DNA from: a virus
Taxonomy: Duplodnaviria > Caudoviricetes
IMG/VR virus record: IMGVR_UViG_3300028412_000003
Strand: one strand, 5' to 3'
Length of the DNA: 64,000 nt
The notes below the pieces were generated by a model. The model saw only the letters and a program-made list of their open reading frames with translations, did no database searches and was not told where the DNA came from. Position 1 is the first letter of the stretch. Each line of letters starts with the position of its first letter. Shown here one piece after another: positions 2,172 to 51,950 of this stretch. The position numbers were made by a program, and so were the translations under genes.

Positions 2172-3461
2172 ATGGAATCAAAAACATTTTGCGCAATGCC
2201 TTTTATAGGTATTATGCTCAACACAGATACATTTATACGATTTTGTTGTATAGCTTCTGGTCCAGAAGCTATACTTAGAGACGAAAATGGAAAAAAGTTA
2301 GCAGTTGGAACATCTAGTATTGAGGAAGCCTGGAACAGCGAAAGCATGGTAGAAGTAAGGCGTGCAATGATAGAGGGTAAAAAGGTTACAGCTTGTAGTC
2401 ATTGTTATAAGCAAGAAGATATTGGCAAAACAAGTTTTCGTGAAATGATGACAAACGAATGGAAGCATCGTTTAGGCGAATCATTTTATGATTATGTGCA
2501 AGAAGCTGTCGAAAATGATATGAAGATTAAATTGCCTCCTGTATATTTAGATTTGCGACTAGGTAACCTTTGTAATTTAAAATGTCGTATGTGTAATCCA
2601 TTTAATAGTAGCCAAATTGCTAAAGAACATTTTCCTTTGTATGAACAAGATGAAGGATATAAATCCGTTTGGACTTCTGAATTTGGAAATAATCCAATAC
2701 ATTTAAAAGAAGAAGAAGTTGTTTTTGATAGTAATTTTTTATGGAATGAAATTATAGGAATGATACCTAAGCTTCAAAAAGTTTATATGACAGGTGGAGA
2801 ACCTACTCTTATTAAGAACAATTACAGATTTATGGAAGAGTGTGTTGCAGCAGGATATAACGATCAAATAGAATTATTCTTTAACATCAATTGCACTAAC
2901 GTAACTGATAAATTTCTTGACTTAGTTTCAAAATTTAAAAGTATAAAGATTAATTGCAGTATTGACGGTATAGGATCAGTAAATGATTATATTAGATCTC
3001 CTAGTAATTGGAACAAAGTTGATACTAATTTTAGAAAATTAGCATCCTTGTCTAATGTAAGACTTGGAATGAGTCCAGTAATTCAAGTCTATAATATCTT
3101 AGATTGTCATAACATACTTGAGTATGCTAATCAAGTATCAAAAGAATATAATAAATCTATTAGTGTTGATTTTTTGATAAATGATCATCCAACATATTTA
3201 GATGTAACTATTATACCTTTAGAAATACGAAAAAAAGGAATAGAAAACCTTTTAGCCTTTAAACAACAGAATAAAATTGAAGACCATATAACACAAAATA
3301 GTATAAATGGAATAGTAAATTTATTTGGAAGACCATTGAGAGATAATCACAAAGAGATTTATCAAAATTTTATAACTATGACAAAAGCATTAGACAAATC
3401 AAGGAAAGAAAATTTTACTAATTCTATACCAGATCTAGCAAAGGAGTTAAATTTTGAATAA
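2172..3461 (+). CDS. Radical SAM protein with N-terminal SPASM/twitch-like Cys domain
   Basis: CNLKCRMC, MTGGEP; N-terminal FCAMPF..CC..CSHC. Confidence 0.9.
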   Translation: MESKTFCAMPFIGIMLNTDTFIRFCCIASGPEAILRDENGKKLAVGTSSIEEAWNSESMVEVRRAMIEGKKVTACSHCYKQEDIGKTSFREMMTNEWKHRLGESFYDYVQEAVENDMKIKLPPVYLDLRLGNLCNLKCRMCNPFNSSQIAKEHFPLYEQDEGYKSVWTSEFGNNPIHLKEEEVVFDSNFLWNEIIGMIPKLQKVYMTGGEPTLIKNNYRFMEECVAAGYNDQIELFFNINCTNVTDKFLDLVSKFKSIKINCSIDGIGSVNDYIRSPSNWNKVDTNFRKLASLSNVRLGMSPVIQVYNILDCHNILEYANQVSKEYNKSISVDFLINDHPTYLDVTIIPLEIRKKGIENLLAFKQQNKIEDHITQNSINGIVNLFGRPLRDNHKEIYQNFITMTKALDKSRKENFTNSIPDLAKELNFE

Positions 3462-4707
3462 CTCAAAAACTTTTTGCGTTCTACCTTGGACACATATGGC
3501 AACATGGACAGATGGTAGCGCCTTACTTTGTTGTGTAGCAAAGAATAGTCATAAGTTAAATCTTAATGATAACACTGTTTCTGAAATCTGGAATAGTGAT
3601 CATTTTAAAGAAGCCCGTGTTAAGATGTTAAACGGAGAAAAAGTTTCAGCATGTGAATCTTGTTACAAGGAAGAAGCAGTTGGAATTAGAAGCCATCGTA
3701 TAAATGAAAATAATCTATGGATTAAAAAATTAGGGCAAGAAAAGATTGATAGTCTAATTGAAGCAACCGACGTTGACGGAACGTTAAATGAAGATTTAGT
3801 TACGTTAGATTTTAGATTAGGTAATACCTGTAATTTACAATGTGTGATGTGCCGTCCTCAAGATAGCAGTATGTGGTTAAACAATGCTAAAAAACTAAAG
3901 GATATACTTGAAACTGAAGCTAAATGGGATTGGCAACACAAAGCAGACATTGATACAACAAGATTTGATTGGTATAAAAATGAAAAATTATGGGCTGATT
4001 TTAACGGTATGTTTTCTAATATACGCCACATTATATTTGCCGGCGGAGAACCATTATTAATTAAAGAACATCTTCGATTAATAAAAAAATTAGTTGAATC
4101 AGGGCATAGTAAAAATATTGAATTACGTTATCACACAAATGGAACTACATTAACTGAAGAAATAATAGATCTTTGGAAAGAATTTAAGTTTGTTGAATTG
4201 ATGGTAAGTATTGATGCATGGGGAAAACATCATGATTATGTTAGATATCCGGCAGACTGGCAGCAAATAATAACTAATCTAAATAGATTAGATAATACAC
4301 CAGATAATATCGATGTTAAGATTTTAGCAACCATACATGCTATGAATATATATTATATTCCGGATTTTGCAACTGAGTTACTTAAACAGGATTTTAAGAA
4401 GATAGGAAAGTTGCATCATGAAGGGTTGTTTCACGCAGGAACCGTACACTGGCCTCGTTATCTTAATATACAAATCTTCCCACAGTGTATTAAACATAAA
4501 ATAAGAGAAAAATGGGAAAGTTATATCGAGTTAAATAAAAATTACCAATGGACTAGTAAAATTAAAAGTCAATTAGAATTTATGGATTCTGAAGATCATT
4601 CAGATTTGTTCCTTCAATATATTGATTATATTGACAAACTTGACAAAATAAGGCATACAGATTTTAGTAAAGTTTTTCCAGAATTTAAGGATATATTAGA
4701 TGGATGA
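3454..4707 (+). CDS. Radical SAM protein with N-terminal SPASM/twitch-like domain
   Basis: CNLQCVMC, FAGGEP; FCVLPW..CC..CESC. Confidence 0.9.
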   Translation: MNNSKTFCVLPWTHMATWTDGSALLCCVAKNSHKLNLNDNTVSEIWNSDHFKEARVKMLNGEKVSACESCYKEEAVGIRSHRINENNLWIKKLGQEKIDSLIEATDVDGTLNEDLVTLDFRLGNTCNLQCVMCRPQDSSMWLNNAKKLKDILETEAKWDWQHKADIDTTRFDWYKNEKLWADFNGMFSNIRHIIFAGGEPLLIKEHLRLIKKLVESGHSKNIELRYHTNGTTLTEEIIDLWKEFKFVELMVSIDAWGKHHDYVRYPADWQQIITNLNRLDNTPDNIDVKILATIHAMNIYYIPDFATELLKQDFKKIGKLHHEGLFHAGTVHWPRYLNIQIFPQCIKHKIREKWESYIELNKNYQWTSKIKSQLEFMDSEDHSDLFLQYIDYIDKLDKIRHTDFSKVFPEFKDILDG

Positions 4708-6067
4708 ATTAGATAAGTTAAGAAGAGATATATTAGAGAGTGAAACATTCTGTTTTTATCCGTTTCTTGAAGTAAGCACAAGACCAAATGGAGTAGTTTT
4801 TCCATGTTGTTATTGGAATGAAAATGATCATTTATCTTTAGAAAAAAGATTAGATGATAAAAATTCTCTTGATACATTCTGGAACAACAAAAAAGTAATT
4901 GATACTAGAAATAAAATATCAAACGGAACTAAAGTTAAGGGTTGTAAAATATGTTATAGAGATGGTGCATCTAGCATGAGGGCTAGAAGTATAAAGGAGC
5001 ATATAAATGATAGAGATAAATTACAGATAGTAAAAGATACTTTAAACAATGAAGGTGTAGCAAAACATTCACCAAAAAAGATAGAACTTAAACCAAGCAA
5101 TCTTTGTAATTTGAAATGTCTAATTTGCAATGCTTATGATTCTTCTCAGATTGAAAAAGAGTTGTCAGACTTAGATGAAAAGTTTAATGGAATTAAAACA
5201 ATAGGTGGAACATTCTCAAGAATAGTAGGAAATCAGTCTGGTGTGTGGGAAGGTAATGTAGGACAATATGTTTTGAATGCTAATTCTAAATCTAAATGGG
5301 CAGAGTCAGATCGATTCTGGGAAGAATTAAAGATATTGCTACCAAAGATAGAAGTTTTAAGTTTTGCAGGAGGCGAACCAACTCTTAATCCTATAGTCAA
5401 TAAAATACTAACCTATTGTGTTGAAACAAAAATATCTAAAAATATCACCGTTTTTATCAGTAGTAATTTTACCAATCTTAATCCTAAATTTCTTTCAAAT
5501 ATGAATAACTTTAAAAAGTTTGAATTAATTGCTAGTATAGATGGTACAGAAAAGGTACAAGAATATACACGGTTTCCTTCTAATTGGAATAAAATAAAAG
5601 AAAACTTTGAAGAAGCTAAGACCTATATGCAAGGCACGGAAATTAAGATATTAACGAATATAACGGTAAGCATAATGAATATATTTCAATTACATGATTT
5701 GTTTTGGTATATTGATGAACAAAGTAGTAAACATCCTTATTACAACGAATGGCCATTTAATATTAATTTAATTAATTTTCCGGAACAGCAACGCATATCG
5801 ATTATACCTCCGGAATTTAGACAAGAGATAATTGATAATCTTAATCATTATCTTGAAAATGGAGATATCATTAAATTCTTTCCTGATTTAAAGATTAAAA
5901 TTGAAATGTTAATACATGAATTAAATAATGAATGGGACAAAGAAGATTCCGTTTTCCAATTAACTAAATTAAAAACTATGTTGGTTACTTTAGATGAGCA
6001 TAGAAAAGTGTCCTATAAGGATGCAATACCAAAACTAGATGAAATATTTAAGGAATACGTAAAATGA
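4700..6067 (+). CDS. Radical SAM protein with N-terminal SPASM/twitch-like domain
   Basis: CNLKCLIC, FAGGEP; FCFYPF..CC..CKIC. Confidence 0.9.
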   Translation: MDELDKLRRDILESETFCFYPFLEVSTRPNGVVFPCCYWNENDHLSLEKRLDDKNSLDTFWNNKKVIDTRNKISNGTKVKGCKICYRDGASSMRARSIKEHINDRDKLQIVKDTLNNEGVAKHSPKKIELKPSNLCNLKCLICNAYDSSQIEKELSDLDEKFNGIKTIGGTFSRIVGNQSGVWEGNVGQYVLNANSKSKWAESDRFWEELKILLPKIEVLSFAGGEPTLNPIVNKILTYCVETKISKNITVFISSNFTNLNPKFLSNMNNFKKFELIASIDGTEKVQEYTRFPSNWNKIKENFEEAKTYMQGTEIKILTNITVSIMNIFQLHDLFWYIDEQSSKHPYYNEWPFNINLINFPEQQRISIIPPEFRQEIIDNLNHYLENGDIIKFFPDLKIKIEMLIHELNNEWDKEDSVFQLTKLKTMLVTLDEHRKVSYKDAIPKLDEIFKEYVK

Positions 6068-7047
6068 AAAAACCAGTAACATTAAGTGGAATTGAATATA
6101 CAAAGATTGAGAATAGATCAAATAGTTTGTATCTTACATGGGTGATGAATAATATCTGTACTAATAGTTGTTCTTATTGTCCTGAAGATTTACACACTGG
6201 AAAAAATCATCATTATGAATGGAATCATGCTAAAAAGTTTCTGAAAGATTGCTTCGATCGTTATGGTAAAGTGCAATGTAGCATCTCCGGCGGCGAACCA
6301 ACAGTTAGTCCTTTTTTTAAAGAAATAGTAGATCTTATATACGACAATGGTGGATTGGTAGTATTAACTACCAATTTTGCAAGGTCTGTTTCGTGGTGGA
6401 AAGATGTGGCCCCAAAGATCAGTAGTTTATCATGTAGCTATCATCCAGAGTTTATGCCCACAAAAGAATTTGACGACAGTCTAATTGAGAAAATAACAGA
6501 AGCAGCGAAGGTAACTTGTGTTACGGTTCGAGTGATGATGCATCCAGATTATTGGGATCAATGTATGAATTTTTTTAAACGTATACAAGATTCCGGTATA
6601 GAATGTTCTGCAGAAATTGTCCGTATATTGGACAATTTTGGAATAGGAGAGGCTTTTTGTGTTATTAATTACACCGAAGAACAAGAACGCATCTTACGTG
6701 AAGTAAAACCCTACATAAATTGGCCAAATAACCTTCCGGATACATATCGACATAATGTACTGAATTCTTATTTGATTTCAGAAACTAACGAAATAATGTT
6801 AGATTTCCCGATAGCGTCGGAAATATCTAATACTATGAATAATGACTTTAATGGTTGGAATTGTAAAATTGGACTGGAAAGTCTATTTGTGCATTATGAT
6901 GGAAATGTGCAAAGGGGCAACTGTGGAGTAGGAGGTCATCTTGGCAATATTACCACCAAAATAAACTGGCCGACTGAAAGTATTATCTGTAATAAAACAG
7001 TTTGTCATTGTTTAGCAGACGTATTGATGTCAAAGGAGATAACATGA
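6064..7047 (+). CDS. Radical SAM protein with C-terminal Cys-rich (SPASM/twitch-like) domain
   Basis: CTNSCSYC, ISGGEP; C-terminal WNCKIG..GNC..CNKTVCHC. Confidence 0.9.
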   Translation: MKKPVTLSGIEYTKIENRSNSLYLTWVMNNICTNSCSYCPEDLHTGKNHHYEWNHAKKFLKDCFDRYGKVQCSISGGEPTVSPFFKEIVDLIYDNGGLVVLTTNFARSVSWWKDVAPKISSLSCSYHPEFMPTKEFDDSLIEKITEAAKVTCVTVRVMMHPDYWDQCMNFFKRIQDSGIECSAEIVRILDNFGIGEAFCVINYTEEQERILREVKPYINWPNNLPDTYRHNVLNSYLISETNEIMLDFPIASEISNTMNNDFNGWNCKIGLESLFVHYDGNVQRGNCGVGGHLGNITTKINWPTESIICNKTVCHCLADVLMSKEIT

Positions 7048-7805
7048 CAAAAATATTATTAGTTGCTGGATGTAGTCATTCTAATGGCTCCGAAATAACA
7101 GCACCGGGATCTCATAGAGATCCTAATGATTTAGAAAGATGTTTTGGAAATAAAATTGCACAACGGAATAACATGACAATGGTAAACATTGCATATGCCG
7201 GAGCATCAAATAAATTAATTGAATCTAGTATAGTAAAGAATCTCAATAAGCTAATATCAGAAGGACATAAATCAGAAGATATCATAGTGTTAATTGGATG
7301 GACTAGTCATCCGAGAGAATATGTGGTAGAGAACGGAAAGTATTACGGATTTACTCTTAATCAACATAACATGTCATCGTGGAAAAGATTTGCAACTTTA
7401 AATCTTAGGAAGTTTTATAAAGTATGGTTGAGGTTTGTAAATTATGAATTATTGTCGATTGAACATGTTATTCGACATTTAACAATAACCGGATACCTTA
7501 AGAATAAAGGTATAAAATATTATGCTTTTAACGCAGTTGACAGAATAGTTCCGCCGGCAAACGAATTTGATCCTATTAATTTTTTTAATAATTACAAAAT
7601 AGACGAAGTAGGATATAACGAAATAGAAAAAGATATTTATTATAGAAAACCTTTTTCTTATAATGATTCTTATTTCCAAACTTTAATGCTTGATTATAAA
7701 TTAGATCCAACGGATAATAACCGTTGGTATCATTATGCGGAAAATGGTCATGAGATATGGGCAACCATATTAGAAAAAGAAATGAAGTTACTTGGATTAT
7801 TATGA
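7044..7805 (+). CDS. SGNH/GDSL hydrolase-like protein
   Basis: LVAGCSHSNG nucleophile-like block, NIAYAGASN block, C-terminal HY..NGH; start moved to the ATG at 7044 (GGAG RBS, ATGA overlap). Confidence 0.55.
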   Translation: MTKILLVAGCSHSNGSEITAPGSHRDPNDLERCFGNKIAQRNNMTMVNIAYAGASNKLIESSIVKNLNKLISEGHKSEDIIVLIGWTSHPREYVVENGKYYGFTLNQHNMSSWKRFATLNLRKFYKVWLRFVNYELLSIEHVIRHLTITGYLKNKGIKYYAFNAVDRIVPPANEFDPINFFNNYKIDEVGYNEIEKDIYYRKPFSYNDSYFQTLMLDYKLDPTDNNRWYHYAENGHEIWATILEKEMKLLGLL

Positions 7806-8578
7806 TGAAAATAAAATCATCTTTTTCTAATATAAAATTAAATGATTTAAAAGATCTAACAACACCGGGTCTAAAAAATACTAGACCTGTATTTCTAGGA
7901 AGGTGGGAAGAACATGCAACTACTATTGATAAAAAATGGACTTATTATATAAATGAAATAGGATTTAGAAATTCTTGGCCGGAAAAAATGAAAGATCATA
8001 TTGTTGGAATATATGGATGTAGTAATATCTTTGGTGTTGGAGTTCCAGACGACCTTGTTTGTACTTCTCTATTACAAGAGAAATTTCCCGAAAAAACATT
8101 ATTAAACTTTGGAGTAATGGGCGCTTCTGTCTCGCATATAGCTAGGATATTTCTTATATCTAGTCAACTATTTAAAATTAAAACGGCATTTTTTAGTCTT
8201 CCTAGTATATATAGGATTCTAATGGTAAATGAAGCTGGATATTATAATCTACATCCGGGAACTAATTCCTTAAACAAAGATGGATTAGAAAAAAGAAGAA
8301 AACAATACTATCAATCGATAAACGAAGAAACCTTATTAATGAATTATTTAGACATAGTGGATCATATTATATTAATTGGAAAAGAATTTGGAATTAGGAT
8401 ATATTTTAGTTCATACGAAGAAATAGTACACAAAATATTAATAGAAAATTATAATGACAGTTATATAACAAAACCGATGTATAATAGTAGAAAGGCTACA
8501 GATAATAATCATCCTTGTTATCTTTGTCATAAGGATTATGCAACGATAATTGAAAAGAAATTATTAACTAATGTATGA
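7802..8578 (+). CDS. SGNH/GDSL hydrolase-like protein
   Basis: GIYGCSNIFGVGV, NFGVMGAS, DNNHP (DxxH); start moved to 7802. Confidence 0.6.
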   Translation: MMKIKSSFSNIKLNDLKDLTTPGLKNTRPVFLGRWEEHATTIDKKWTYYINEIGFRNSWPEKMKDHIVGIYGCSNIFGVGVPDDLVCTSLLQEKFPEKTLLNFGVMGASVSHIARIFLISSQLFKIKTAFFSLPSIYRILMVNEAGYYNLHPGTNSLNKDGLEKRRKQYYQSINEETLLMNYLDIVDHIILIGKEFGIRIYFSSYEEIVHKILIENYNDSYITKPMYNSRKATDNNHPCYLCHKDYATIIEKKLLTNV

Positions 8579-9596
8579 TATTGTATTCTTTGGAGAAAGA
8601 AATAATAATTGGGATATTCTTAAAGAAAGATTTCCAACGGCAAAAAATATAACTAATTTAGAAAATATCAACAAGATAACATTCACTAAAATGTATTGGT
8701 TAGTTTATGATGATCTAATTATAAACGAAGACTTTAATTTTGATTATAAAATAGAAGAATGGGATCAAAAATATGTTCATTCTTTTCTCAATAATGGAAA
8801 TTATAATGGAATATCTTTAATACCTAAAACGAAAAATATATCAAAACGAGAAGCAGAATATAGGTTTTTCGTAGACAAGAAAGAAATTCCAATTGAAGCA
8901 TCAACTCCAAATCCATATGATGTAGTTTTTATATCATACAATGAACCTAATGCTGATAAGAATTATAAGAAATTACTTGAGATCGTTCCTTGCGCAAAAA
9001 GAGTAAACGGGATAAACGGGATACACCAAGCTCATATAGAAGCAGCAAAAATATCAGATACTAAAATGTTATGGATTGTTGATGCTGATGCTATAGTTGT
9101 AAATGAATTTAATTTCTCTTATTTGCCATCCGTTTGGGAACAAGACGCCGTTCATGTCTGGAGGTCAAAAAATCCTATTAATGGATTATCTTACGGATAT
9201 GGTGGAATAAAACTTTTTCCGAGAGATCTTACTTTGTCACTTGATATTAACACACCAGATATGACTACTAGCATAAGTGATAGATTTAGAATACACGAAG
9301 ATATTTCTAATCTAACAGAATTTAATACTGATCCTTTTAACACTTGGAAATCAGCTTTTCGTGAATGTGTAAAATTGTCATCTCGAACAATAACAAGACA
9401 AAATGAAAAAGAAACACAAGACCGTTTACAAATCTGGATGACGGTTGGTGCTGATATGCAATATGGTATATATTGTATAGACGGAGCTCGTAGTGGAAAC
9501 GAGTACGGAATAAAAAACAAGGATGATAAAAAGGCCCTTGCAATGATTAACAATTTTGATTGGTTAAAAGAAAAATTTGATGAGCAATGTAATTAA
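8571..9596 (+). CDS. Glycosyltransferase-like protein (GT-A/GT2-like)
   Basis: ISYNEPNAD, AHIEAAK, WIVDADA (DxD), YGYGGIKL; paralog of 1247-2170 with an extra N-terminal region. Confidence 0.65.
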   Translation: MYDIVFFGERNNNWDILKERFPTAKNITNLENINKITFTKMYWLVYDDLIINEDFNFDYKIEEWDQKYVHSFLNNGNYNGISLIPKTKNISKREAEYRFFVDKKEIPIEASTPNPYDVVFISYNEPNADKNYKKLLEIVPCAKRVNGINGIHQAHIEAAKISDTKMLWIVDADAIVVNEFNFSYLPSVWEQDAVHVWRSKNPINGLSYGYGGIKLFPRDLTLSLDINTPDMTTSISDRFRIHEDISNLTEFNTDPFNTWKSAFRECVKLSSRTITRQNEKETQDRLQIWMTVGADMQYGIYCIDGARSGNEYGIKNKDDKKALAMINNFDWLKEKFDEQCN

Positions 9597-10257
9597 GATA
9601 TTAAATGGATTAGAAGAAATTTATCAAGACAATTTTATAATTCACCTAAAACGAACATTAGAAAAGAATCCAGAGGTAGAAGATGCAATGTCTGATGCAC
9701 TTAGCATTGGACAAATAAAAAGTAAAGAATGGTTGATTGATCATTTACCAAAAGAACTTGGAAAAGTTTTTATTTGTGCAGGTTGGTACGGAACTCTTGC
9801 AGCAATGATGTTCCGAGCTAACCTTAATATAACAGAGATAAGGACGTTTGATGTTGACCCAAGTTGTGCTGTCATAGCAGAAAATATGAATAGAACAGAA
9901 GTGCAACAAGAATGGAAGTTTAAAGCCAGTACATTAGACATATTAGATATGACATATCCAACAAAATATGTTACTTATAGGGCAAACGGAACTTCGGTAC
10001 TACTTGAAGAAATGCCAGACACTATTATCAATACTAGTTGTGAACATATTAAATATTTTCAAGAATGGTATGATCATATACCAACAGGAACAACATTAGT
10101 TCTTCAAAGTAACAATTACTTTGAACACAATCAACATATAAATTGTGTTCCTTGTTTAAAGGAATTTAAAAAGAGGGCACCTATGTCGGAGATATTTTAC
10201 GCAGGAGAATTATTTCTTCCAAAATATACTAGGTTTATGTTAATAGGAAAAAAGTAA
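9580..10257 (+). CDS. Class I SAM-dependent methyltransferase-like protein
   Basis: ICAGWYG motif I-like, FDVDP acidic motif II-like, IINTSCEH. Confidence 0.55.
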   Translation: MSNVIKILNGLEEIYQDNFIIHLKRTLEKNPEVEDAMSDALSIGQIKSKEWLIDHLPKELGKVFICAGWYGTLAAMMFRANLNITEIRTFDVDPSCAVIAENMNRTEVQQEWKFKASTLDILDMTYPTKYVTYRANGTSVLLEEMPDTIINTSCEHIKYFQEWYDHIPTGTTLVLQSNNYFEHNQHINCVPCLKEFKKRAPMSEIFYAGELFLPKYTRFMLIGKK

Positions 10258-11321: not shown

Positions 11322-11329
11322 GTATTAAT

Positions 11330-13686: not shown

Positions 13687-14761
13687 TTTTTGCAAAGCAA
13701 TCGATCATCATGTGTCAATTAATAGTCAAGGGTTAGTTCGTCCTTGTTGTTGGTTTAAGGGCGGAACAAATAGCGACATAAGTGAAGCAAGATCTAATTT
13801 TAAAAAAGAAATTAAAAGTATTGATCATCCAGGTTGTATCAAATGTAAAAATTCTGAATTAATCGGAGTAAAAAGTCGGCGCATTTTTTATGAAGAAAGT
13901 TGGCCTGCTTCTTCGGGATTGAATTATTTAGATATAAGTTTCGCTAACACTTGCAATCTTGAATGTTTGATGTGTAATTCAAGTAATTCAAGTAAATTGT
14001 ATAAAAGAGATATAGAACTAAAGGGCAATGATTTTCCTGTTTCGGCACACAAACATGCTACGATGGATTTTAATCGCATCAAAGAATTAGCAGAAATATG
14101 TAATAGCTCAATTGGAGAATTTTTAATTGATGTAAAAGGAGGAGAACCAATGGTAACTCCAGAATTTGTATTATTTTTGTCTATGCTTGATATAGAATTT
14201 AAAAAAAGATGCACGTTAAAGATTATTACAAATGGAACTAGGATAATGAAAGAACTTCCTTCAAATTTTAAAAAGGTAAAATATCTTTTTAGCATAGAAG
14301 CATTAGGGCAATTATATCAATATATAAGAGGTGGTAAAGAATTTACATCAGATCAAATGTTTGATATTATAGAAATGATAAAAACTGAAAATATTAAAAA
14401 CTTTCAAGATGCTTCATATAATTTTAGCATAACCGTTATGTCCTACAATCTTTTTAATCTTGTAGAATTAGATAATGAGATTGCAGATAGAGGATTTTGG
14501 CCTCCTACTTATAACACCATATTAGTAAATCCAGATTTTTTAAGTTTTGGGATTTTACCACAACAGTTATCAAATATGATGATAGAAAAATTAAAAGAAG
14601 AAGATGTAAAATTCAAACCAGTTATTACTGCATTAAAGAACATGGAAAAACTTGACAATAATAAAGTTGAGATGTTTATTAGATATACTCGTATGATGGA
14701 AAAAAGAAATAAAATGCCACCAATTGAAGAAATAGTGCCAGAGTTTAGGACTATGTTATGA
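13679..14761 (+). CDS. Radical SAM protein with N-terminal SPASM/twitch-like domain
   Basis: CNLECLMC, VKGGEP; FCKA..PCC..CIKC. Confidence 0.88.
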   Translation: MASFCKAIDHHVSINSQGLVRPCCWFKGGTNSDISEARSNFKKEIKSIDHPGCIKCKNSELIGVKSRRIFYEESWPASSGLNYLDISFANTCNLECLMCNSSNSSKLYKRDIELKGNDFPVSAHKHATMDFNRIKELAEICNSSIGEFLIDVKGGEPMVTPEFVLFLSMLDIEFKKRCTLKIITNGTRIMKELPSNFKKVKYLFSIEALGQLYQYIRGGKEFTSDQMFDIIEMIKTENIKNFQDASYNFSITVMSYNLFNLVELDNEIADRGFWPPTYNTILVNPDFLSFGILPQQLSNMMIEKLKEEDVKFKPVITALKNMEKLDNNKVEMFIRYTRMMEKRNKMPPIEEIVPEFRTML

Positions 14762-15936
14762 GTAATTTTTGTTCCCTGCCATTTACACATTTTAGCACAC
14801 GTCCGAATGGCGACGTTCTTCCTTGTTGTAGATATCCTGGAAAATTAGGAAATATAAAAGATAATTCATTAGAAGAAATATGGAACGGAGAACAGATGAA
14901 AGAACTCCGAAAGCAATTTCTTGCAAATGAAAGACCAGAAAAATGCTGGCCTTGTTGGCAACTTGAGGACTCAGGCGGAACAAGTATGAGACAAACTATG
15001 AATCAAAATCGAAATTATGAGTTTGAACTTTTACCGGAACAACCATTTAAGATTCCAGTCATTGAACTTAAACTTAGTAACCTTTGTAATTTTCGTTGTC
15101 GTACATGTAAACCTGATTTGAGTACTACATGGCTCAAAGATTGGCATACTGTCTCTAATATGTACTATGACAGCAATATCTCTATAAACACTGAAAAAGC
15201 TAATTTTTTCGATACAGAAGAGTTCCTCTACAACATGTTGCGCCTTGCACCTACCATAGAGATACTAGAGTTTGCGGGTGGGGAACCTTTAATGGATCCA
15301 TTGCATTATATGGTTCTTAATGCACTAAAGAGCGAAGCAAGTCATATAGAAATTAAATATTCTACTAACCTAAGCAGATTGCAGATAGGTAAATGGGACG
15401 TGTTTGATTATTGGAAAGATTATAAAAGTGTTGATGTATCTTTGTCAATGGATGGATATCCGGATCTCAATGATTACATACGATCAGAATCAAATACAAA
15501 GTCAATAGAAGAAAACTTAAAATTAGTAAGAAAAGAATTAGGTGATAAATTTAAAGGAAGGATTGCATTATGTTTTTCGGCATTTAATGCTTATTACCTA
15601 CCCGAGAGTTATTCTTATTTTGTTAGAGAATTAGATATGCCAGTTCATGGAAACATAGCATACGATCCACCGTTTATTAATCCTCAATTATTACCAATTG
15701 ACATTAAACAAAAAATTATCACTAGATACAATGTATTTAGAGAAACAATAAATGATATGAGTAAGTATCATCAAAAAAGGATTGATCGATTCTTAACAAC
15801 TAATGGAAATTATATGATGAGTGAAGACAAGTCTCATTTGTTAGATCAATTCTTAAAATATACTTCAATATTAGATAAGTCAAGAAATACTAATTTTTTG
15901 ACAATAGCAAAGGAATTTTTAAATGACATGGGATAA
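14758..15936 (+). CDS. Radical SAM protein with N-terminal SPASM/twitch-like domain
   Basis: CNFRCRTC, FAGGEP; FCSLPF..PCC..CWPC. Confidence 0.9.
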   Translation: MSNFCSLPFTHFSTRPNGDVLPCCRYPGKLGNIKDNSLEEIWNGEQMKELRKQFLANERPEKCWPCWQLEDSGGTSMRQTMNQNRNYEFELLPEQPFKIPVIELKLSNLCNFRCRTCKPDLSTTWLKDWHTVSNMYYDSNISINTEKANFFDTEEFLYNMLRLAPTIEILEFAGGEPLMDPLHYMVLNALKSEASHIEIKYSTNLSRLQIGKWDVFDYWKDYKSVDVSLSMDGYPDLNDYIRSESNTKSIEENLKLVRKELGDKFKGRIALCFSAFNAYYLPESYSYFVRELDMPVHGNIAYDPPFINPQLLPIDIKQKIITRYNVFRETINDMSKYHQKRIDRFLTTNGNYMMSEDKSHLLDQFLKYTSILDKSRNTNFLTIAKEFLNDMG

Positions 15937-17194
15937 ATCAAAAGCAGAACAAACATATTGTCCATTACCTTGGTTGCATTTAGCAACTAATGCAACTGGT
16001 AGATTGCGAGTATGTTGCAATAGCTTTACCGGAAACAACAAATTATTACATGATAATGGATCTTTCGTAAAAGCAACAGACATTAAACAAGTAAGTGACT
16101 TGGATAAAAACAAGACATTAATGGAATTAAGAAGACAAATGTTAAATGGTGAAAGACCAGACACTTGCAGAAGATGTTTCCATGAAGAAGATAATGGAAT
16201 TATTAGTTCTAGAATGGTTTATAATGAACAATTTGGAGAAATTGATGTTGCTCTCAAAGAGACTAAGTCTACCGGTGAAGCTCCGCATAAATTTCAATAT
16301 CTTGATCTAAGGTTAGGCAACTTGTGCAATTTAAGATGCCGGATGTGTAATCCTTATACCAGTAGCCAATTAGTTGACGAATCTGCAGAACTTGGAATAA
16401 TTTCTGCAGAAGATGTAGCATTTCTTAAGAATATGGATTGGCCAGAGTCTACTAAATTATGGGATTTATTAGAAAGTAATCTATCTACAATAGATCTAAT
16501 ATACCTAACAGGTGGAGAACCAACATTAATATTGGAACAACTCCGTCTTCTTAAAGCTTGTATAGATAGAGGTTATGCAAAGAATATCACTTTGAAATAT
16601 AATACCAATGTTACAAATATTCCAAAGAAATTCCTTGATTATTGGAAAGAATTTAAGAAGGTAAAAATTAATTGTTCAGTTGACGGATTAGATGATGTAT
16701 GTCGTTATATAAGAAATCCAAGTAACTGGAAAGCGATTGATAAAAATTTAAAGATGATTGATCAAATTGCAGGTACACATTCTAATATAGATGTTGAAAT
16801 ACACACAACGGTACAAGTTGCAAATATAACAAGGTTGATTGAAATATTTGATTATTTTTCAAAATTTAAGAATATCACTAATTTTCCTTTTTTAAACTTG
16901 CTTACTAATCCACCTTATTACAATATAAAGATTTTACCACAACACATTAAGGATGAAGTGTCTAATGAGTTATTAACTTGGTACGAAGAAAACAAAAGCA
17001 AATATGAAGGAACACATGCATCTTCTCCAAACAAGATACATAAAATACCAGGTCTAATAAGTTATATGAAAATGGATGATTGGTCTCACCATGCTAAAGA
17101 ATTTAAGAAATACACAGTATGGTTTGATAAAAGTAGAGATGAAGAGTTTGTTTCAGTTGCTCCTCGATTAAAGGATTGGTATGAATCAATATAA
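15923..17194 (+). CDS. Radical SAM protein with N-terminal SPASM/twitch-like domain
   Basis: CNLRCRMC, LTGGEP; YCPLPW..VCC..CRRC. Confidence 0.9.
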   Translation: MTWDKSKAEQTYCPLPWLHLATNATGRLRVCCNSFTGNNKLLHDNGSFVKATDIKQVSDLDKNKTLMELRRQMLNGERPDTCRRCFHEEDNGIISSRMVYNEQFGEIDVALKETKSTGEAPHKFQYLDLRLGNLCNLRCRMCNPYTSSQLVDESAELGIISAEDVAFLKNMDWPESTKLWDLLESNLSTIDLIYLTGGEPTLILEQLRLLKACIDRGYAKNITLKYNTNVTNIPKKFLDYWKEFKKVKINCSVDGLDDVCRYIRNPSNWKAIDKNLKMIDQIAGTHSNIDVEIHTTVQVANITRLIEIFDYFSKFKNITNFPFLNLLTNPPYYNIKILPQHIKDEVSNELLTWYEENKSKYEGTHASSPNKIHKIPGLISYMKMDDWSHHAKEFKKYTVWFDKSRDEEFVSVAPRLKDWYESI

Positions 17195-17375
17195 GAAACT
17201 TTGTTCTCAGCCATTTTTAAATTTAACAATAGACAAGACGGGTAAACTAAGTCCTTGTTGTCGAATTCCCTCTTTTTTGAATAGCAACATTAATGAATTT
17301 AGAGAACAAGAAAAAGAAAAGAACATAAAATTTTTAGATTATTGTCCTGAATTTAAGGAATGGTTTGATGTCTAA
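17181..17375 (+). pseudogene. Internally deleted radical SAM paralog remnant (N-terminal SPASM-like start fused to the C-terminal tail)
   Basis: LCSQPF..SPCC matches paralog N-termini, DYCPEFKEWF matches the end of 17368-18504; no CxxxCxxC core. Confidence 0.65.
17337..17366 (+). repeat. 30-bp direct repeat, copy 1 (copy 2 at 18463-18492)
   Basis: GATTATTGTCCTGAATTTAAGGAATGGTTT vs GATTATTGTCCGGAATTTAAGGAATGGTTT, 1 mismatch. Confidence 0.85.
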
Positions 17376-18504
17376 GTATAATTCAAATACCCTTTGTCCT
17401 TTTCCTTTTTCTGGTTTCTGTATAGAACCATCAGGAGTAGCAAAAATGTGTTGCCGGTCAATGCCTTTAACTGATGATAATGGAAAGTTTATCAATATAA
17501 AGGATTATTCTTTTGAAGAAATAAAAAATTTAAAACAAATAAAAGAAGTTCAAGAGTCTATGTTAAAAGGAGAAAAACCCCAAGCATGTCAAAAATGTTG
17601 GAATCAGGAAGCAAAAGGGGTAAAATCTCTCAGGAACTTTATAAGAGGAAGGTCCTGGCATGGAGATTATATATACGATAAAAAAGAATTAATTTATTTA
17701 GATTTAAGACTGAGTAATAAATGTAACCTCAAATGTATTATGTGTTCTCCTGATTCAAGTGATCAAATTGGGATTGAACAAGGAATAGAAAGTGCTTATC
17801 AATCAGCAGAGGTTGCCGAAGAGGTTATTAAACATAGCCCTTATTTAAAAGAAATTTATTTTGCCGGCGGCGAACCTATGCTAGATAACGATCATTTTAA
17901 GATAATAGAACATCTAGTGAAAACTGGAGAAGCAAAGAACGTTGAATTAAAATATAGTACCAATTGTACGACAATAAGAGATAAGTGGTTTGACTTAGCC
18001 AAACACTTTAAGACGATAAAGATGCAACTTAGTATTGATTCAATCGGTTCTAGAGCATTCTATGTTCGGCATCCTAGCAAATGGGATATAATAGAAAAAA
18101 ACATTGATAGGTTGTTGTTAGAAAAACCCAAAAACACTAGACTTTCGATAGATACTGCATTGCATAATATGACGTTATTTGGAATACCAGAATTAATGTT
18201 ATGGGCGGAAAATAAAGGAATAAAACAGAACTTTATAGAAGTAACTTCTCCTAGATATCTACAGATACATATATTACCTAATATTCAAAAAGAAATAATA
18301 ATAGAGCAATTACATAATTCAAATAAAACAAAAAATTTAGTTGATAATAAATGGTTATCTCGTATAGAAGAGATGATAAAGAAAGACCCAACAGTGGAAG
18401 AGGTTCGGCAGTTTAAAGAATATATAAAATATACTGAGAATTTTCGTAATATAAAGATTAATGATTATTGTCCGGAATTTAAGGAATGGTTTAATGAGTT
18501 ATGA
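17368..18504 (+). CDS. Radical SAM protein with N-terminal SPASM/twitch-like domain
   Basis: CNLKCIMC, FAGGEP; LCPFPF..MCC..CQKC. Confidence 0.9.
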   Translation: MSKYNSNTLCPFPFSGFCIEPSGVAKMCCRSMPLTDDNGKFINIKDYSFEEIKNLKQIKEVQESMLKGEKPQACQKCWNQEAKGVKSLRNFIRGRSWHGDYIYDKKELIYLDLRLSNKCNLKCIMCSPDSSDQIGIEQGIESAYQSAEVAEEVIKHSPYLKEIYFAGGEPMLDNDHFKIIEHLVKTGEAKNVELKYSTNCTTIRDKWFDLAKHFKTIKMQLSIDSIGSRAFYVRHPSKWDIIEKNIDRLLLEKPKNTRLSIDTALHNMTLFGIPELMLWAENKGIKQNFIEVTSPRYLQIHILPNIQKEIIIEQLHNSNKTKNLVDNKWLSRIEEMIKKDPTVEEVRQFKEYIKYTENFRNIKINDYCPEFKEWFNEL

Positions 18505-19570
18505 TTTTACAAAGATCCCGTTTGAAGATATAGTACGGCTTGGGCAACGCACTATGATACACCGTGACCTTTTTACAGTGAGTTGGTTACTTGGTCGTTT
18601 TTGTAATTATCGTTGTTCATATTGTTGGCCGTATGCCAGGAGTGATCGAAAAGATCACCGTCCTACAGAACTCTGTTTAACAACAATAGATGAGATTAAA
18701 CGACAAGCTAGAAACAATGGATTTAATTCTTTTCATTTTAGTTTTAGTGGAGGTGAACCAACCTTTCATCCGGGTTATTTAGATATATTAAAATACCTAG
18801 CAGATGATGTTTCTAATACAAACGGAACAACAATTCATATGACATCAAATTGTTCTCGTAATATGAAATGGTTTGAGGAATATACAGAAACAGCAAAGTC
18901 TTTTCAGCGTGCTAGTATCACAGCAAGTTTACACACCGAACATGTTAATACTCCGGAAAAGATGCAAGACTTTGCAGACAAATTGATATTTGCTCAAGAA
19001 CAAGATATACAAGTAACTATCAATATGGTAATGGTACCAGAATGGTTTGAACAATCATGGGAAAACGCATTATTCTTTCACAATCAAAATATCAATGTTA
19101 CACTTAAACCACAAAGCGATCCGACCGCATCTCGTATAGTAGATGGATATACAGATGACATGCTTGATAAACTTCATAACGGAATGCCTCAAGAAAATTT
19201 TACAACAATAAAGAGTAAATTTTACAATCGTCCTAAACAGAAAATCTCTATCCCTCAAGACGTTCCTTCTAATATGCAAGTAGAAATGGAAGATTCTAAT
19301 GGAAAGAAATGGTATATAGATCAAGCAGAAAGATTTAATGCTTTTAATTTTAACAAATTTGAAGGCTGGAGTTGTAATGCAGGATATCAGGGTATCATAA
19401 TAAGAGAACCGGATGGTAGTGTTAAGCGTTCATATTCATGTAAAGATCAACCATTAGGTAATATCAAAACAGGATTTAAAATATTTGATACACCTATGCC
19501 GTGTATTACACCGACTTGTGTTTCAAGTGCAGATAGCAAAATACCAAAGAAGAAGAAGAAGAAGATATGA
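18494..19570 (+). CDS. Radical SAM protein with C-terminal Cys-rich domain
   Basis: CNYRCSYC, FSGGEP; WSCNAG..YSC..CITPTC; start moved to the ATG at 18494 (AAGGA RBS). Confidence 0.9.
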   Translation: MSYDFTKIPFEDIVRLGQRTMIHRDLFTVSWLLGRFCNYRCSYCWPYARSDRKDHRPTELCLTTIDEIKRQARNNGFNSFHFSFSGGEPTFHPGYLDILKYLADDVSNTNGTTIHMTSNCSRNMKWFEEYTETAKSFQRASITASLHTEHVNTPEKMQDFADKLIFAQEQDIQVTINMVMVPEWFEQSWENALFFHNQNINVTLKPQSDPTASRIVDGYTDDMLDKLHNGMPQENFTTIKSKFYNRPKQKISIPQDVPSNMQVEMEDSNGKKWYIDQAERFNAFNFNKFEGWSCNAGYQGIIIREPDGSVKRSYSCKDQPLGNIKTGFKIFDTPMPCITPTCVSSADSKIPKKKKKKI

Positions 19571-20427
19571 TTATAAATGTAAACGAAGTACCTCAAGATA
19601 AAGAAATACTTAGTTTTATAAAGAAACAATTACCAGGAAACGAAGAGGATAGAGTTGGTCCTTTTATTTTTGAAGAGTTAGATGTTTGTGAACTCGGAGT
19701 TAAAACGTCTAATCTTTTAACTTCAGTTGAACAGATTGAAAGATTACATGGGCTTGAAGGATGGCAAAAACAACACGGATATTCAACTCCGCATTATAGA
19801 GGGTTTTCATTAACTTACAACAAGGAGTTTAATGATAAAAGCAGGAGCCAATATCATCAAACTTTTGGATCTAAATTTATAAAAGATTCCTTCTCTCGAG
19901 AAGCGTCTGGAGTAGTTACTATGAAAAATACATATTATGATACATATGCTTTCCGACATTTAAATTCAACAATAAAAGAACATTTTAGCGGGTTATTTTC
20001 TCGCATAAAAGGGGCAATATTACGAAGTCGTGTTGCGTATTTATATTCCGGAGAAATTGACTTAAATACATTTAAAGGAGGATGGCATATAGATGAACCT
20101 CAGTATATGATGTTGAGGTTAGTTATACCCCTTAAGACAAATGAAAATTATTATTTAAGATTTGATGGAGATGATAATCTAGGTAATCAAGCATCGTTTG
20201 ATAAGATACTCGAATACGACAAAGCATACATCTGGAATAACCGTATTCCACATGAGGTTGGGTGTTATAAAAGTGATCCACTTACAGACCCCCGGATTAA
20301 TATGATTGTTGGGTTTTCTCCGTGGTTTGACTACGATGAAGAAAATGATAGATTCGTTTCAAATAGTAATTTTGGAATACCAGTTTCTAGAATAATAAAG
20401 GATAGGTTATTTTTAAATGACAGCTGA
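19567..20427 (+). CDS. 2OG-Fe(II)/cupin oxygenase, Asp/Asn beta-hydroxylase-like
   Basis: WHID (HxD)...RLVIPL...IPHEV distal His. Confidence 0.6.
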   Translation: MIINVNEVPQDKEILSFIKKQLPGNEEDRVGPFIFEELDVCELGVKTSNLLTSVEQIERLHGLEGWQKQHGYSTPHYRGFSLTYNKEFNDKSRSQYHQTFGSKFIKDSFSREASGVVTMKNTYYDTYAFRHLNSTIKEHFSGLFSRIKGAILRSRVAYLYSGEIDLNTFKGGWHIDEPQYMMLRLVIPLKTNENYYLRFDGDDNLGNQASFDKILEYDKAYIWNNRIPHEVGCYKSDPLTDPRINMIVGFSPWFDYDEENDRFVSNSNFGIPVSRIIKDRLFLNDS

Positions 20428-21136
20428 CACAAAAATTAAGTTATTAGCTATACTGAATCACCTACTCTTTATAGGAGGAGTAGTATATTCATTTTCATGG
20501 ACAGGATTATTATATGGATTTATCATTTACTTGTTAATAGTCACGATTGGAACAAGCATTGGCTATCATAGGTATTACACTCACAAATCATTTAATACCA
20601 ATAAGACATGGGAATTAATTTTCCTTTTCTTCGGAAGCATAGCTTTTTTAGGTCCAGTTATAGCTTGGTCTGGAATACATCGTATACATCATGCTAAGTC
20701 TGATACAAATGAAGATCCACACAGTCCTTTGAATGGGTTTTTTAACACCTGGTTCCATATATTTCCTAATAAGAACATATCACCGAAGTACATAGCAGAT
20801 CTTATAAAAGATCCATGGCTAAAGTTCCAACACAAATGGTATTTTTGCATGGTCACGATTTATTTGGTGTTAGGATATCTAGCAATCGGACATTGGGCAG
20901 TTTATATAATCTCAATGCCAGCTGTGTTGATGTATCATGTAACTGGATTTATCAATAGCGTTAACCATATGATAGGAGAACAAAAATCAAAACATGATCG
21001 ATCAACTAATATTCCTATCTTATCTTTAGTTACTGGAGGAGAATCTTATCATTCTAATCATCATGTGCGTCCAGGAAGTTCGGTTTTTGGTAAGTACGAT
21101 ATAGCTAAGATTTTTTTACCGTGGATTATAAAATGA
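20417..21136 (+). CDS. Membrane fatty-acid (delta-9-like) desaturase
   Basis: Three His boxes HRYYTH, HRIHH, HSNHH; DPHSP; hydrophobic TM segments. Confidence 0.85.
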   Translation: MTADTKIKLLAILNHLLFIGGVVYSFSWTGLLYGFIIYLLIVTIGTSIGYHRYYTHKSFNTNKTWELIFLFFGSIAFLGPVIAWSGIHRIHHAKSDTNEDPHSPLNGFFNTWFHIFPNKNISPKYIADLIKDPWLKFQHKWYFCMVTIYLVLGYLAIGHWAVYIISMPAVLMYHVTGFINSVNHMIGEQKSKHDRSTNIPILSLVTGGESYHSNHHVRPGSSVFGKYDIAKIFLPWIIK

Positions 21137-22020
21137 ATTATTATGAACTTGAACCAGAAGAAAATACATTTAAAACACTTGTAGTGGACATTACTCATAA
21201 GTGTAATATGGAATGTGCCAATTGTTATATTCCAAATAGAGATATTCCAGATATGGATCTAGATCGTCTTTATGATCTAGCGAAGAGGCTACCTCGGCGC
21301 ACAGAGTTTCGATTGATGGGAGGAGAACCGACTATGCACAAAGATCTACCAGACATAATTTCTACTCTCCGCACGCTAGGTCACAGGCCTACAATACTTA
21401 CTAACGGACTCAGGCTAGGCAATTTAGACTACTGTAAGACGCTTAAAAACGCGGGCTTGCACAGTTTAAACATAAGTCTCAACGGCGCTGATGACGACAA
21501 CATCTATGTTATAACAGATGAACTTAAATGTGCAGAACGTAAAATGAAAGCATTAAGGAATGTCGTTTCTTTAAATATGTTCATCAATATCAATTGTATC
21601 ATACAAAAAGGCGTAAGTGAACCCGTGCCTGGACGGTTAATTGATATATTCCAAAATGAGTTAAACTATCCCGGTGTATTACGATTCCGCAATGTTGGAC
21701 AGATTGGCCGGTTTTCTTTAGGAAAAGAAGACAATTATACCTTTGATGAATTGATAGAGTTCATGGGTAAAGTTACTGGAAAAGATCCTGATTGGATACG
21801 TCAATGGAAACAAGTTGAAGGTTACGACGAAGAACACAACGTACTCTTTCCATTAGATGAAACAAAGAAGAGATCGACCCAGTGGATTAAAATTACGGAT
21901 TGGAGCCCTTCTTTATCTGATATTCCTGATCCAAATAGTATTAGGAGAGGAAGGATCACTCAAGATTTTAAGCTGGCACCTTTCTTTGAGCACGTTAAGG
22001 AAAACGAATTTGGATACTAA
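21133..22020 (+). CDS. Radical SAM protein (MoaA-like core, no SPASM)
   Basis: CNMECANC, LMGGEP, LTNG, ISLNG; start at 21133 by ATGA overlap. Confidence 0.85.
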   Translation: MNYYELEPEENTFKTLVVDITHKCNMECANCYIPNRDIPDMDLDRLYDLAKRLPRRTEFRLMGGEPTMHKDLPDIISTLRTLGHRPTILTNGLRLGNLDYCKTLKNAGLHSLNISLNGADDDNIYVITDELKCAERKMKALRNVVSLNMFININCIIQKGVSEPVPGRLIDIFQNELNYPGVLRFRNVGQIGRFSLGKEDNYTFDELIEFMGKVTGKDPDWIRQWKQVEGYDEEHNVLFPLDETKKRSTQWIKITDWSPSLSDIPDPNSIRRGRITQDFKLAPFFEHVKENEFGY

Positions 22021-29649: not shown

Positions 29650-29677
29650 AGAACACTCCTCTGTTACTTTATATTTA

Positions 29678-29706
29678 ATTATAAAGCAAATTTCGCAATT
29701 AATCAA
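29678..29706 (-). promoter_or_regulatory. Sigma70-type promoter
   Basis: TTGATT-17-TATAAT on the - strand upstream of the VWA gene. Confidence 0.55.
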
Positions 29707-29709
29707 GAG

Positions 29710-29741
29710 AAAAGACGGATGTTTTTCAACACCCGTCTTTT
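29710..29741 (-). terminator. Intrinsic terminator-like hairpin after the MoxR gene
   Basis: AAAAGACGGGTGTT-GAAA-AACATCCGTCTTTT, 14-bp stem with one G-U pair. Confidence 0.7.
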
Positions 29742-29745
29742 TAGT

Positions 29746-35485: not shown

Positions 35486-35537
35486 TAAATTTCCTTTCCG
35501 AGTTATTAAAGACGAGGATGTCTTGTAAGTATATTTT

Positions 35538-35565
35538 ATTATACACTTTATTTAGGTTTTGTCAA
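35538..35565 (-). promoter_or_regulatory. Sigma70-type promoter for folE-queE
   Basis: TTGACA-16-TATAAT on the - strand. Confidence 0.65.
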
Positions 35566-35568
35566 GAA

Positions 35569-51919: not shown

Positions 51920-51950
51920 AATTACTCCTTTAAAATAAAGTTTATGTTAT

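Follow-up and report, generated by a model that had tools for sequence, protein, structure and literature searches.

A selected radical SAM tailoring island in an uncultured T4-like jumbo phage combines a core common to predatory bacteria with a hypervariable enzyme panel

The sequence analysed here is a 64,000-nucleotide stretch of the viral record IMGVR_UViG_3300028412_000003 (hereafter the window), which belongs to a T4-like jumbo phage, uncultured and known from lake metagenomes. Thirteen open reading frames (ORFs) for radical S-adenosylmethionine (SAM) enzymes lie at positions 2172-22020, inside a translationally coupled plus-strand operon of about 25 kb that we call the island. We found the island to be a selected, lineage-wide radical SAM tailoring system, in which a core common to predatory bacteria is joined to a hypervariable panel of enzymes. 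With genes named by their first nucleotide, the conserved core comprises the GT-A-like proteins (nucleotide-diphospho-sugar transferase fold) 1247 and 8571, the methyltransferase-fold protein 9577, the radical SAM enzymes 10257 and 11330 and, in some contigs, 18461. The panel of other radical SAM genes differs from phage to phage and shows heavy turnover.

All thirteen ORFs were open and carried one CxxxCxxC motif each (2172, 3454, 4700, 6064, 10257, 11330, 12715, 13679, 14758, 15923, 17365/17368, 18461/18494 and 21121/21133, two starts being given for the last three). Twelve had a GGE(P/S) motif and 10257 the variant GNLGDP, so that every intact CxxxCxxC ORF and GGE-type motif named in the original prediction was found at its place. 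Counted over ORFs of at least 100 amino acids, CxxxCxxC occurred 13 times in 7317 residues between 2 and 22 kb, against once in 16335 residues in the rest of the window. The Pfam model Radical_SAM (PF04055) scored above its gathering cut-off of 29.5 in 12 of the 13; the remaining protein, 11330, stayed below it at 25.6 bits, yet obtained 418 bits on the NCBIfam model NF033640. The thirteen had been taken for paralogs of one family. BLASTP and NCBIfam instead separated them into four groups of 8, 3, 1 and 1: the NF033640 members 2172, 3454, 4700, 11330, 13679, 14758, 15923 and 17365, which are 22-32% identical to each other; a second family of 6064, 12715 and 18461 with twitch-like cysteines at the C terminus; and the singletons 10257 and 21121. 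A shared C-terminal helix (LDKSR..F....PE[LF]) is real, though confined to the eight members of the first group. None of the thirteen reached the cut-off of a housekeeping or otherwise characterised equivalog (MoaA, QueE, NrdG, PqqE, anSME, viperin), in agreement with the expectation that they would not cluster with such families. The best of these scores was that of 21121 on MoaA, 75 bits against a cut-off of 284; the same protein gave 85 bits on TrsS (cut-off 490), far below as well. Weak NCBIfam matches were obtained to HxsB/HxsC (E 1e-8 to 1e-9, 32-37 bits against cut-offs of 268-370), and further ones to PapB, viperin, MoaA and the lipid radical SAM enzyme Tes.

The eight proteins of the first group have an unusual architecture. 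NF033640 (N_Twi_rSAM, 'twitch domain-containing radical SAM protein') is a model of 398 positions with a cut-off of 170 bits; seven of the window proteins scored 283-418 bits over its whole length, and 13679 stayed under the cut-off with 150 bits. In this group the auxiliary iron-sulfur (twitch) domain precedes the catalytic barrel, which is the reverse of the canonical order: the Pfam SPASM match fell at residues 5-96, ahead of a Radical_SAM match from about residue 106, and such a leading SPASM match was present in six of the eight. Twenty columns were invariant across the eight paralogs, among them eight cysteines (five N-terminal ones plus those of CxxxCxxC) and GGE. The N-terminal cysteines C9, C27, C28, C92 and C95 (11330 numbering) were invariant in 37 homologs as well. 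For the divergent member 13679, a search of 5.8 billion proteins gave no homolog above 29% identity apart from a copy of itself on a 2.2-kb contig. A full-text literature search returned no paper on NF033640 by name or accession, nor on an N-terminal twitch or SPASM domain; the family appears to have a name and a model, with no described function found.

The origin of the array was addressed by a FastTree phylogeny of 202 family representatives, taken from clusters at 60% identity. This is a fast tree with long branches, so only a coarse conclusion was drawn from it. None of the eight window copies paired with another one (eight label changes for eight rows), and each grouped with Bdellovibrionota or other phage sequences. 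Phage and bacterial sequences interleaved, and the well-supported branches required a minimum of 16-19 changes. Pairwise identities gave the same picture: 2172, 3454 and 4700 were 42, 43 and 35% identical to their best Bdellovibrionota relatives, against 31, 31 and 27% to their best paralogs in the window. Since no window copies pair and closer relatives lie outside, the array is a mosaic of old subfamilies rather than the result of recent duplication in place, and diversification in situ was not supported by this phylogeny. Retention by selection, on the other hand, was borne out, both by the 20 invariant columns and by the ratio of nonsynonymous to synonymous substitutions (dN/dS) in array genes of related phages. 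These ratios were taken from ortholog pairs of 75-97% identity from different related loci, and were not computable for the eight window genes without close orthologs. Median values were 0.06 for orthologs of 11330, 0.09 for those of 10257 and 0.07 for variable members; no value exceeded 0.18. The unique copies of the window are probably under selection as well, since their motifs are intact at only 22-32% identity, and the system as a whole is under purifying selection.

Family members are present in hundreds of related phages, and comparison with viral relatives separates the fixed part of the island from the changing one. The sample consisted of 80 related IMG/VR viral loci with 10-kb flanks; some counts are out of 81. 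Orthologs of 11330 were 65-80% identical in most of the 80 loci, and another 119 protein clusters of aquatic metagenomic origin, Tara included, held orthologs of 67-79% identity on contigs of up to 457 kb. Those of 10257 were 57-72% identical, and both genes were present in 76 of 81 loci. The 8571-type GT-A-like domain occurred in 73 of 80 phage loci and in 4 bacterial ones, and the 9577-type gene recurred as well; orthologs of 18461 (72-86%) and of 1247 (about 70%) were found in only part of the related phage loci. Some relatives fuse both GT-A-like types in tandem, in proteins of about 830-910 amino acids that include some 270 further C-terminal residues; Pfam returned nothing for ten of these large fusions. 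Variation in the panel was large. A related locus of 21 kb held 5-13 CxxxCxxC ORFs of at least 200 amino acids, the 590 radical SAM proteins of the related loci formed 144 clusters at 50% identity, and 8 of the 13 window enzymes had no counterpart of at least 50% identity there. One 330-kb relative contained 16 radical SAM matches, all of them at 47-89 kb. Islands of relatives also carried a carbamoyltransferase of NodU/CmcH type (19 phage and 3 bacterial loci), a UDP-glucose/GDP-mannose dehydrogenase (17 phage loci), a PP-loop ATPase, weakly QueC-like (26 loci), a B12 radical SAM protein (11 phage and 9 bacterial loci) and, in 4 bacterial loci, a GT2 gene. No ortholog of 11330 or 18461 was found in GenBank phages.

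When each prokaryotic species was scanned through one genome, most carriers of the family turned out to be Bdellovibrionota; an alignment of three paralogs served as query, the eight-paralog alignment having no usable block. Of 201 Bdellovibrionota genomes sampled, 49 had proteins above the NF033640 cut-off, as many as 19 in a single genome; 14 control genomes had none. In several Bdellovibrionota loci the core proteins had identities of 60-62% (18461), 54-57% (11330), 41-48% (10257), 40-47% (8571 and 1247) and 37-42% (9577). The homologs of 18461 adjoin orthologs of 10257 and 11330, and further arrays of the family stand beside this core. These are chromosomal loci: one has dnaG and rpoD as neighbours, and others belong to contigs of 0.8-3.3 Mb. 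The ClpB-type chaperone of the window was only 41-46% identical to its Bdellovibrionota homologs and thus gave no host signal for Bdellovibrionota. As the island genes are specifically close, this points to transfer of the module between phages and Bdellovibrionota, rather than general relatedness, as the probable reason why they share it. As a separate observation, a 1.9-Mb Bdellovibrionales chromosome (loci L133 and L118) had 16 family members, seven of them in one head-to-tail run.

As for the substrate, the gene context favours a sugar-type molecule over a peptide or protein. That the island tailors a sugar-based molecule, inferred from its gene context, is our tentative preference, in which we place slightly less than even confidence. 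It is favoured because the core contains two GT-A-like transferases, fused in some relatives, and a methyltransferase; because the islands of relatives often add nucleotide-sugar or sugar-decoration enzymes; and because searches for a leader-binding domain, a precursor or a tagged protein were negative. Concerning the transferases, 1247 and 8571 are paralogs of 33% identity (BLASTP), with the DxD motifs VDGDN and VDADA, whose second aspartate (D67) was invariant in 30 homologs. The GT-A fold of the 1247 model (residues 4-156) aligned with B4GALNT1 at a VIA-align Z of 10.6 and a root-mean-square deviation of 3.1 Å over 139 residues. Viral GT-A proteins matched it also, namely STIV A197 (Z 10.1), mimivirus R699 (Z 8.6) and chlorovirus PBCV-1 A64R, and a Foldseek search gave GT-A matches at E 1e-4, with the S-glycosyltransferases ThuS and SunS among them. 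No curated glycosyltransferase family in Pfam or PHROG matched 1247 or 8571 at E values up to 10. Concerning the peptide side, no Pfam match to a leader-binding RRE (PqqD-like) domain was found in any of the thirteen. The original prediction had noted no evident precursor peptide, and this was confirmed: the genes overlap or abut, and the sole small ORF (17181-17375) is a remnant of the family. This remnant begins like a family member, with N-terminal twitch sequence, and its final 15 residues are almost those that end 17365-18504; it is the trace of a deletion inside the array.

The sugar tailoring would take place in the cytoplasm. Transmembrane segments were seen only in the two His-box oxygenases, all radical SAM, GT-A-like and methyltransferase proteins being soluble, and Pfam gave no match to an initiating transferase, flippase, polymerase or transporter among the scanned island ORFs; with soluble enzymes and no export gene found, the product would be made on a cytoplasmic acceptor. 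The GT-A-like enzymes would transfer sugars from host nucleotide sugars onto this acceptor. Each radical SAM enzyme would then cleave SAM at its CxxxCxxC cluster, and the resulting 5'-deoxyadenosyl radical would abstract one hydrogen from the sugar scaffold. The twitch cluster may serve as electron relay, as it does in BtrN or anSME, and complete one oxidation, epimerisation, deoxygenation or C-C/C-X bond formation. Further decorations may be added by the methyltransferase, the iron/2-oxoglutarate (Fe/2OG) oxygenases and the His-box oxygenases. Differing panels would result in a differently decorated product for each phage.

Several observations weigh against a sugar substrate. No island enzyme obtains a substrate assignment by homology. 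The nucleotidyltransferases MobA and IspD, which have the same GT-A superfamily fold, score Z of about 9 against the 1247 model. Genes for a UDP-sugar dehydrogenase and a carbamoyltransferase are found in relatives, whereas the window has none. Oxygenases of the His-box and LpxO-like kinds would suggest a lipid instead of a sugar, and in structure searches the 11330 model came closest to the peptide maturases SkfB, CteB and SuiB. A further point concerns the promoter-like box upstream of 11330: in many loci part of it coincides with the conserved end of 10257, stop codon included.

This box, AATAAGTA, is a candidate T4-type late promoter, which we take to resemble that of T4. Of 53 distinct regions upstream of 11330 orthologs, 27 had a box of the form ATAA[GA]TA (TATAAATA in some) within the last 22 nucleotides before the start, compared with 0.5% of random 22-mers, and it was kept also in loci with a different preceding gene. 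The T4 late-promoter octamer TATAAATA itself was strongly depleted in the whole window (1 occurrence against 12 ± 3.6 expected from shuffles), WATAAGTA was not enriched there, and general promoter and terminator scans of the window performed no better than chance. Because of the T4-late-type box and the neighbouring fibre-type genes, the data suggest possible late expression, with a virion component as acceptor. This is the weakest step of the sugar scheme, because of the overlap with the end of 10257 just mentioned.

Among the alternatives, modification of proteins survives best, and we consider it unlikely. According to it, proteins would be the substrates of the array, those of the virion fibre or capsid being the most plausible targets. 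Radicals would cross-link them (thioether, C-C), epimerise residues or oxidise side chains, as SPASM/twitch maturases do with peptides, and the GT-A-like enzymes would glycosylate those same proteins. The SkfB, CteB and SuiB matches, the presence of ThuS and SunS among the GT-A matches and the weak similarity to PapB and HxsB/HxsC are in line with this, as are the fibre-type (Mtd_N) gene adjoining the island and the late-type box. The structural matches are, however, generic for the superfamily: in the Foldseek search SkfB, CteB and SuiB came out level with BlsE, anSME and viperin at TM-scores of about 0.3 throughout, which does not separate peptide-acting from sugar-acting relatives. No leader-binding domain and no precursor ORF were detected, as described above, and ORFs with HxS repeats, poly-Ser or RGRR tails were absent both from the window and from the 10-kb surroundings of the arrays at 155 loci of phages and bacteria. 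In addition, the same core is found in Bdellovibrionota chromosomes, which have no phage fibres.

The oxygenases at the end of the operon could instead indicate an island whose target is a membrane lipid or a lipid-linked glycan of the host (for example lipid A/lipopolysaccharide or an aminolipid), remodelled so that the cell surface changes during infection. Two membrane His-box proteins of the desaturase family and two or three LpxO-like oxygenases are located there; homologs of both oxygenase types stand beside the 11330 ortholog in Bdellovibrionota locus L101, a PagP-annotated gene lies near the small array of Vibrio phage K566, and weak matches to Tes would fit as well. We regard this proposal as improbable: the oxygenases are outside the conserved core and rare in relatives (2 phage loci, 1 bacterial locus), the LpxO model scored 21 bits against a cut-off of 500, and the radical SAM, GT-A-like and methyltransferase proteins are all soluble. 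Little credence is likewise given to an action on nucleotides or phage DNA, by base hypermodification or supply of modified nucleotides, which would extend known radical SAM steps of phage DNA modification. In its support one may cite the T4-like nature of the phage, the 7-deazaguanine pathway proteins of the window (GTP cyclohydrolase I and a QueE-like radical SAM protein), the frequency of the weakly QueC-like PP-loop protein in the islands of relatives, the QueC-like gene adjoining the small array of KVP40, and weak similarity to viperin and MoaA. These last scores are far under their cut-offs, though, and FolE and QueE are located 12 kb away on the opposite strand; Bdellovibrionota chromosomes have as many as 19 copies at scattered loci, and no DNA-modification gene was found in those loci that were examined. 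That most copies are decaying, functionless duplicates, as the 64-residue remnant of a lost copy and the low family score of 13679 might suggest, is already contradicted and most improbable, given thirteen open ORFs with intact cluster motifs, 20 invariant columns in eight paralogs of 22-32% identity, dN/dS of 0.06-0.09 in relatives and tight, translationally coupled gene packing.

A broader proposal may also be made, which we put forward as speculative and hardly probable. Jumbo phages and Bdellovibrionota, unrelated predators of bacteria, would share and exchange a modular 'radical diversification kit', whose fixed core builds a scaffold and whose reshuffled permuted-twitch panel writes a lineage-specific pattern on a surface or virion molecule. 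If this were true, the pattern would be under arms-race selection like O-antigen diversity, but made by radical chemistry, and the panel would amount to hundreds of permuted-twitch subfamilies, some of them unique to one genome.

The operon runs on the plus strand as a single series of overlapping or abutting ORFs from the start of the window to position 25629, is interrupted by two gaps only (8 nucleotides at 11322-11329 and 170 nucleotides at 17195-17364) and extends beyond the 5' end of the window. Its features are collected in Table 1 together with those of the surrounding DNA. Pfam (E up to 10), PHROGs and PDB sequences returned nothing for the ORFs 78, 643, 1247, 7757, 8571, 9577, 19567 and 24141. 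The two tandem LpxO-like genes contain a 295-nucleotide direct repeat of 98% identity (22983-23277 and 23762-24056), while a second aligned stretch of the same pair is about 76% identical in DNA; the repeat looks like recent gene conversion. No template/variable repeat pair of the kind linked to Mtd was seen within 19-31 kb. The family-B polymerase (PolB) was 50% identical to that of Sinorhizobium phage Phosso and 43% to those of Atu_ph07 and Rak2-type phages, and the window also encodes a clamp loader, a ClpB-type (Clp/Hsp100) AAA+ chaperone, DnaJ and the fibre-type protein with an Mtd_N domain. DNA matching the window was present in lake-water metagenomes from 3-4 studies. The QueE-like protein is a fourteenth radical SAM-type gene, without CxxxCxxC spacing, and with its neighbours represents parts of the 7-deazaguanine pathway, as in DNA-modifying phages. 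The window has a MoxR-type AAA ATPase beside a DUF2201 metallopeptidase/VWA protein, and a MoxR/DUF58 pair borders the core cluster in one Bdellovibrionota locus (L102).

Table 1. Coordinates of the island genes, the promoter-like box and neighbouring features in the window (AF2, AlphaFold2; pLDDT, predicted local distance difference test)
Feature	Position	Strand	Remarks
First ORF, open at the 5' end of the window	3-653	+	No Pfam/PHROG match; family in 20 related phage loci
GT-A-like (nucleotide-diphospho-sugar transferase fold), DxD motif VDGDN	1247-2170	+	AF2 pLDDT 89
NF033640 radical SAM, variable member	2172-3461	+	360 bits; best relative a Bdellovibrionota protein, 42%
NF033640 radical SAM, variable member	3454-4707	+	401 bits; Pfam SPASM 8-71, Radical_SAM 122-279
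NF033640 radical SAM, variable member	4700-6067	+	283 bits
Group 2 radical SAM, twitch-like C267, C287, C309, C314, C316	6064-7047	+	
DUF6071-like protein, weak	7002-7805	+	23.4 bits, Pfam cut-off 27
Protein without family match	7757-8578	+	37% homologs beside core triad in Bdellovibrionota loci L099, L114
GT-A-like domain protein, conserved core, paralog of 1247	8571-9596	+	
Class I SAM-methyltransferase fold, conserved core	9577-10257	+	ESM Atlas structure search, TM 0.66-0.74 against methyltransferase clusters; no Pfam match
Radical SAM, conserved core, CQAACPMC + GNLGDP, auxiliary Cys C-terminal	10257-11321	+	
AATAAGTA box, candidate T4-type late promoter	11317-11324	+	5 nucleotides upstream of 11330 start
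NF033640 radical SAM, conserved core	11330-12718	+	418 bits; AF2 pLDDT 89.5
Group 2 radical SAM (C-terminal twitch)	12715-13686	+	Counterparts of at least 50% identity in 7 other loci
Divergent N-terminal-twitch radical SAM, orphan subfamily	13679-14761	+	150 bits, cut-off 170; all invariant Cys kept
NF033640 radical SAM	14758-15936	+	341 bits; Pfam SPASM E 1e-15 at residues 5-67
NF033640 radical SAM	15923-17194	+	375 bits
Family remnant, 64 amino acids	17181-17375	+	In the 170-nucleotide gap
NF033640 radical SAM	17365-18504	+	312 bits
Group 2 radical SAM, core-associated (C-terminal twitch)	18461-19570	+	
Distant AspH/LpxO-like relative	19567-20427	+	BLASTP E 5e-5 to 22626; no Pfam match
Membrane His-box oxygenase (fatty-acid-desaturase family)	20417-21136	+	PF00487, 61.8 bits; four transmembrane-like segments
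Radical SAM, core only, MoaA/TrsS-like	21121-22020	+	PF04055, 67 bits; without auxiliary Cys
Second membrane His-box oxygenase	21857-22645	+	PF00487, 37.9 bits; four transmembrane-like segments
Two tandem Asp/Asn-hydroxylase (LpxO-like) Fe/2OG oxygenases (22626, 23390)	22626-24169	+	PF05118, 46-47 bits; 63% identical
Last two operon ORFs, without family match	24141-25629	+	
Mtd_N (major tropism determinant) domain protein	25633-26853	-	Directly after the island
ORF of 209 amino acids, sole other CxxxCxxC of the window (CNNQCTDC)	27217-27843	-	Without family match
MoxR-type AAA ATPase adjoining DUF2201 metallopeptidase/VWA protein	28399-30840	-	
QueE-like radical SAM, GTP cyclohydrolase I and phosphoribosyltransferase, side by side	33936-36362	-	
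ClpB-type (Clp/Hsp100) AAA+ chaperone (749 amino acids) and DnaJ	49673-52811	-	

Radical SAM enzymes catalyse chemically difficult reactions, and NF033640, with hundreds of subfamilies without a characterised member, constitutes a large untapped source of enzymology. The conservation of such arrays across many uncultured aquatic jumbo phages implies a costly, selected infection function outside current models of phage biology. The chromosomal clusters of Bdellovibrionota offer a cultivable route to this function, and raise the question why two kinds of predator share the system.

How does the island compare with known systems? The window members belong to NF033640 by their N-terminal twitch cysteines and full-model scores; the definition of this family includes neither the array organisation nor the conserved core nor the distribution over phages and Bdellovibrionota. 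With canonical SPASM/twitch enzymes (BtrN, BlsE, anSME, SkfB, CteB, SuiB, MoaA) they share a barrel and an auxiliary [4Fe-4S]-binding cysteine domain. The canonical C-terminal order of the latter is kept in 6064, 12715, 18461 and 10257, whereas the eight main members carry the domain in a permuted, N-terminal position; identities to the canonical enzymes are 12-16%, no equivalog cut-off is reached, and the window lacks an RRE domain or precursor. Among phages, the T4-like Campylobacter phages CP220 and CPt10 carry 11-12 radical SAM genes of unknown function, five of them in an interchangeable module (Timms et al. 2010, PMC2853527). CP220 differs from the window in having no NF033640 member, its best match being 31 bits and core only. 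KVP40-type vibriophages and Ralstonia phage RsoM2USA have the same architecture, at 22-25% identity and with three to five matches per genome, in groups that adjoin a GT1-annotated gene, nadV and a QueC-like gene. Their members, however, are mostly under the family cut-off (114-131 bits in KVP40), orthologs of the core genes 10257, 11330 and 18461 are absent, and the arrays are much smaller. The HXS (His-Xaa-Ser) maturation system likewise brings several radical SAM enzymes together (PMC13128918), and weak HxsB/HxsC matches were obtained here; that system has an HxS-repeat precursor, whereas none was found in the window or in 155 related loci. Finally, chlorovirus PBCV-1 (A64R), mimivirus (R699) and STIV (A197) encode their own cytoplasmic glycosylation, with no export genes, and these proteins are among the GT-A matches of 1247 at 10-13% identity. 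We know of no radical SAM arrays in these three glycosylation systems, and to our knowledge the phage arrays of the present family are the largest radical SAM arrays known.

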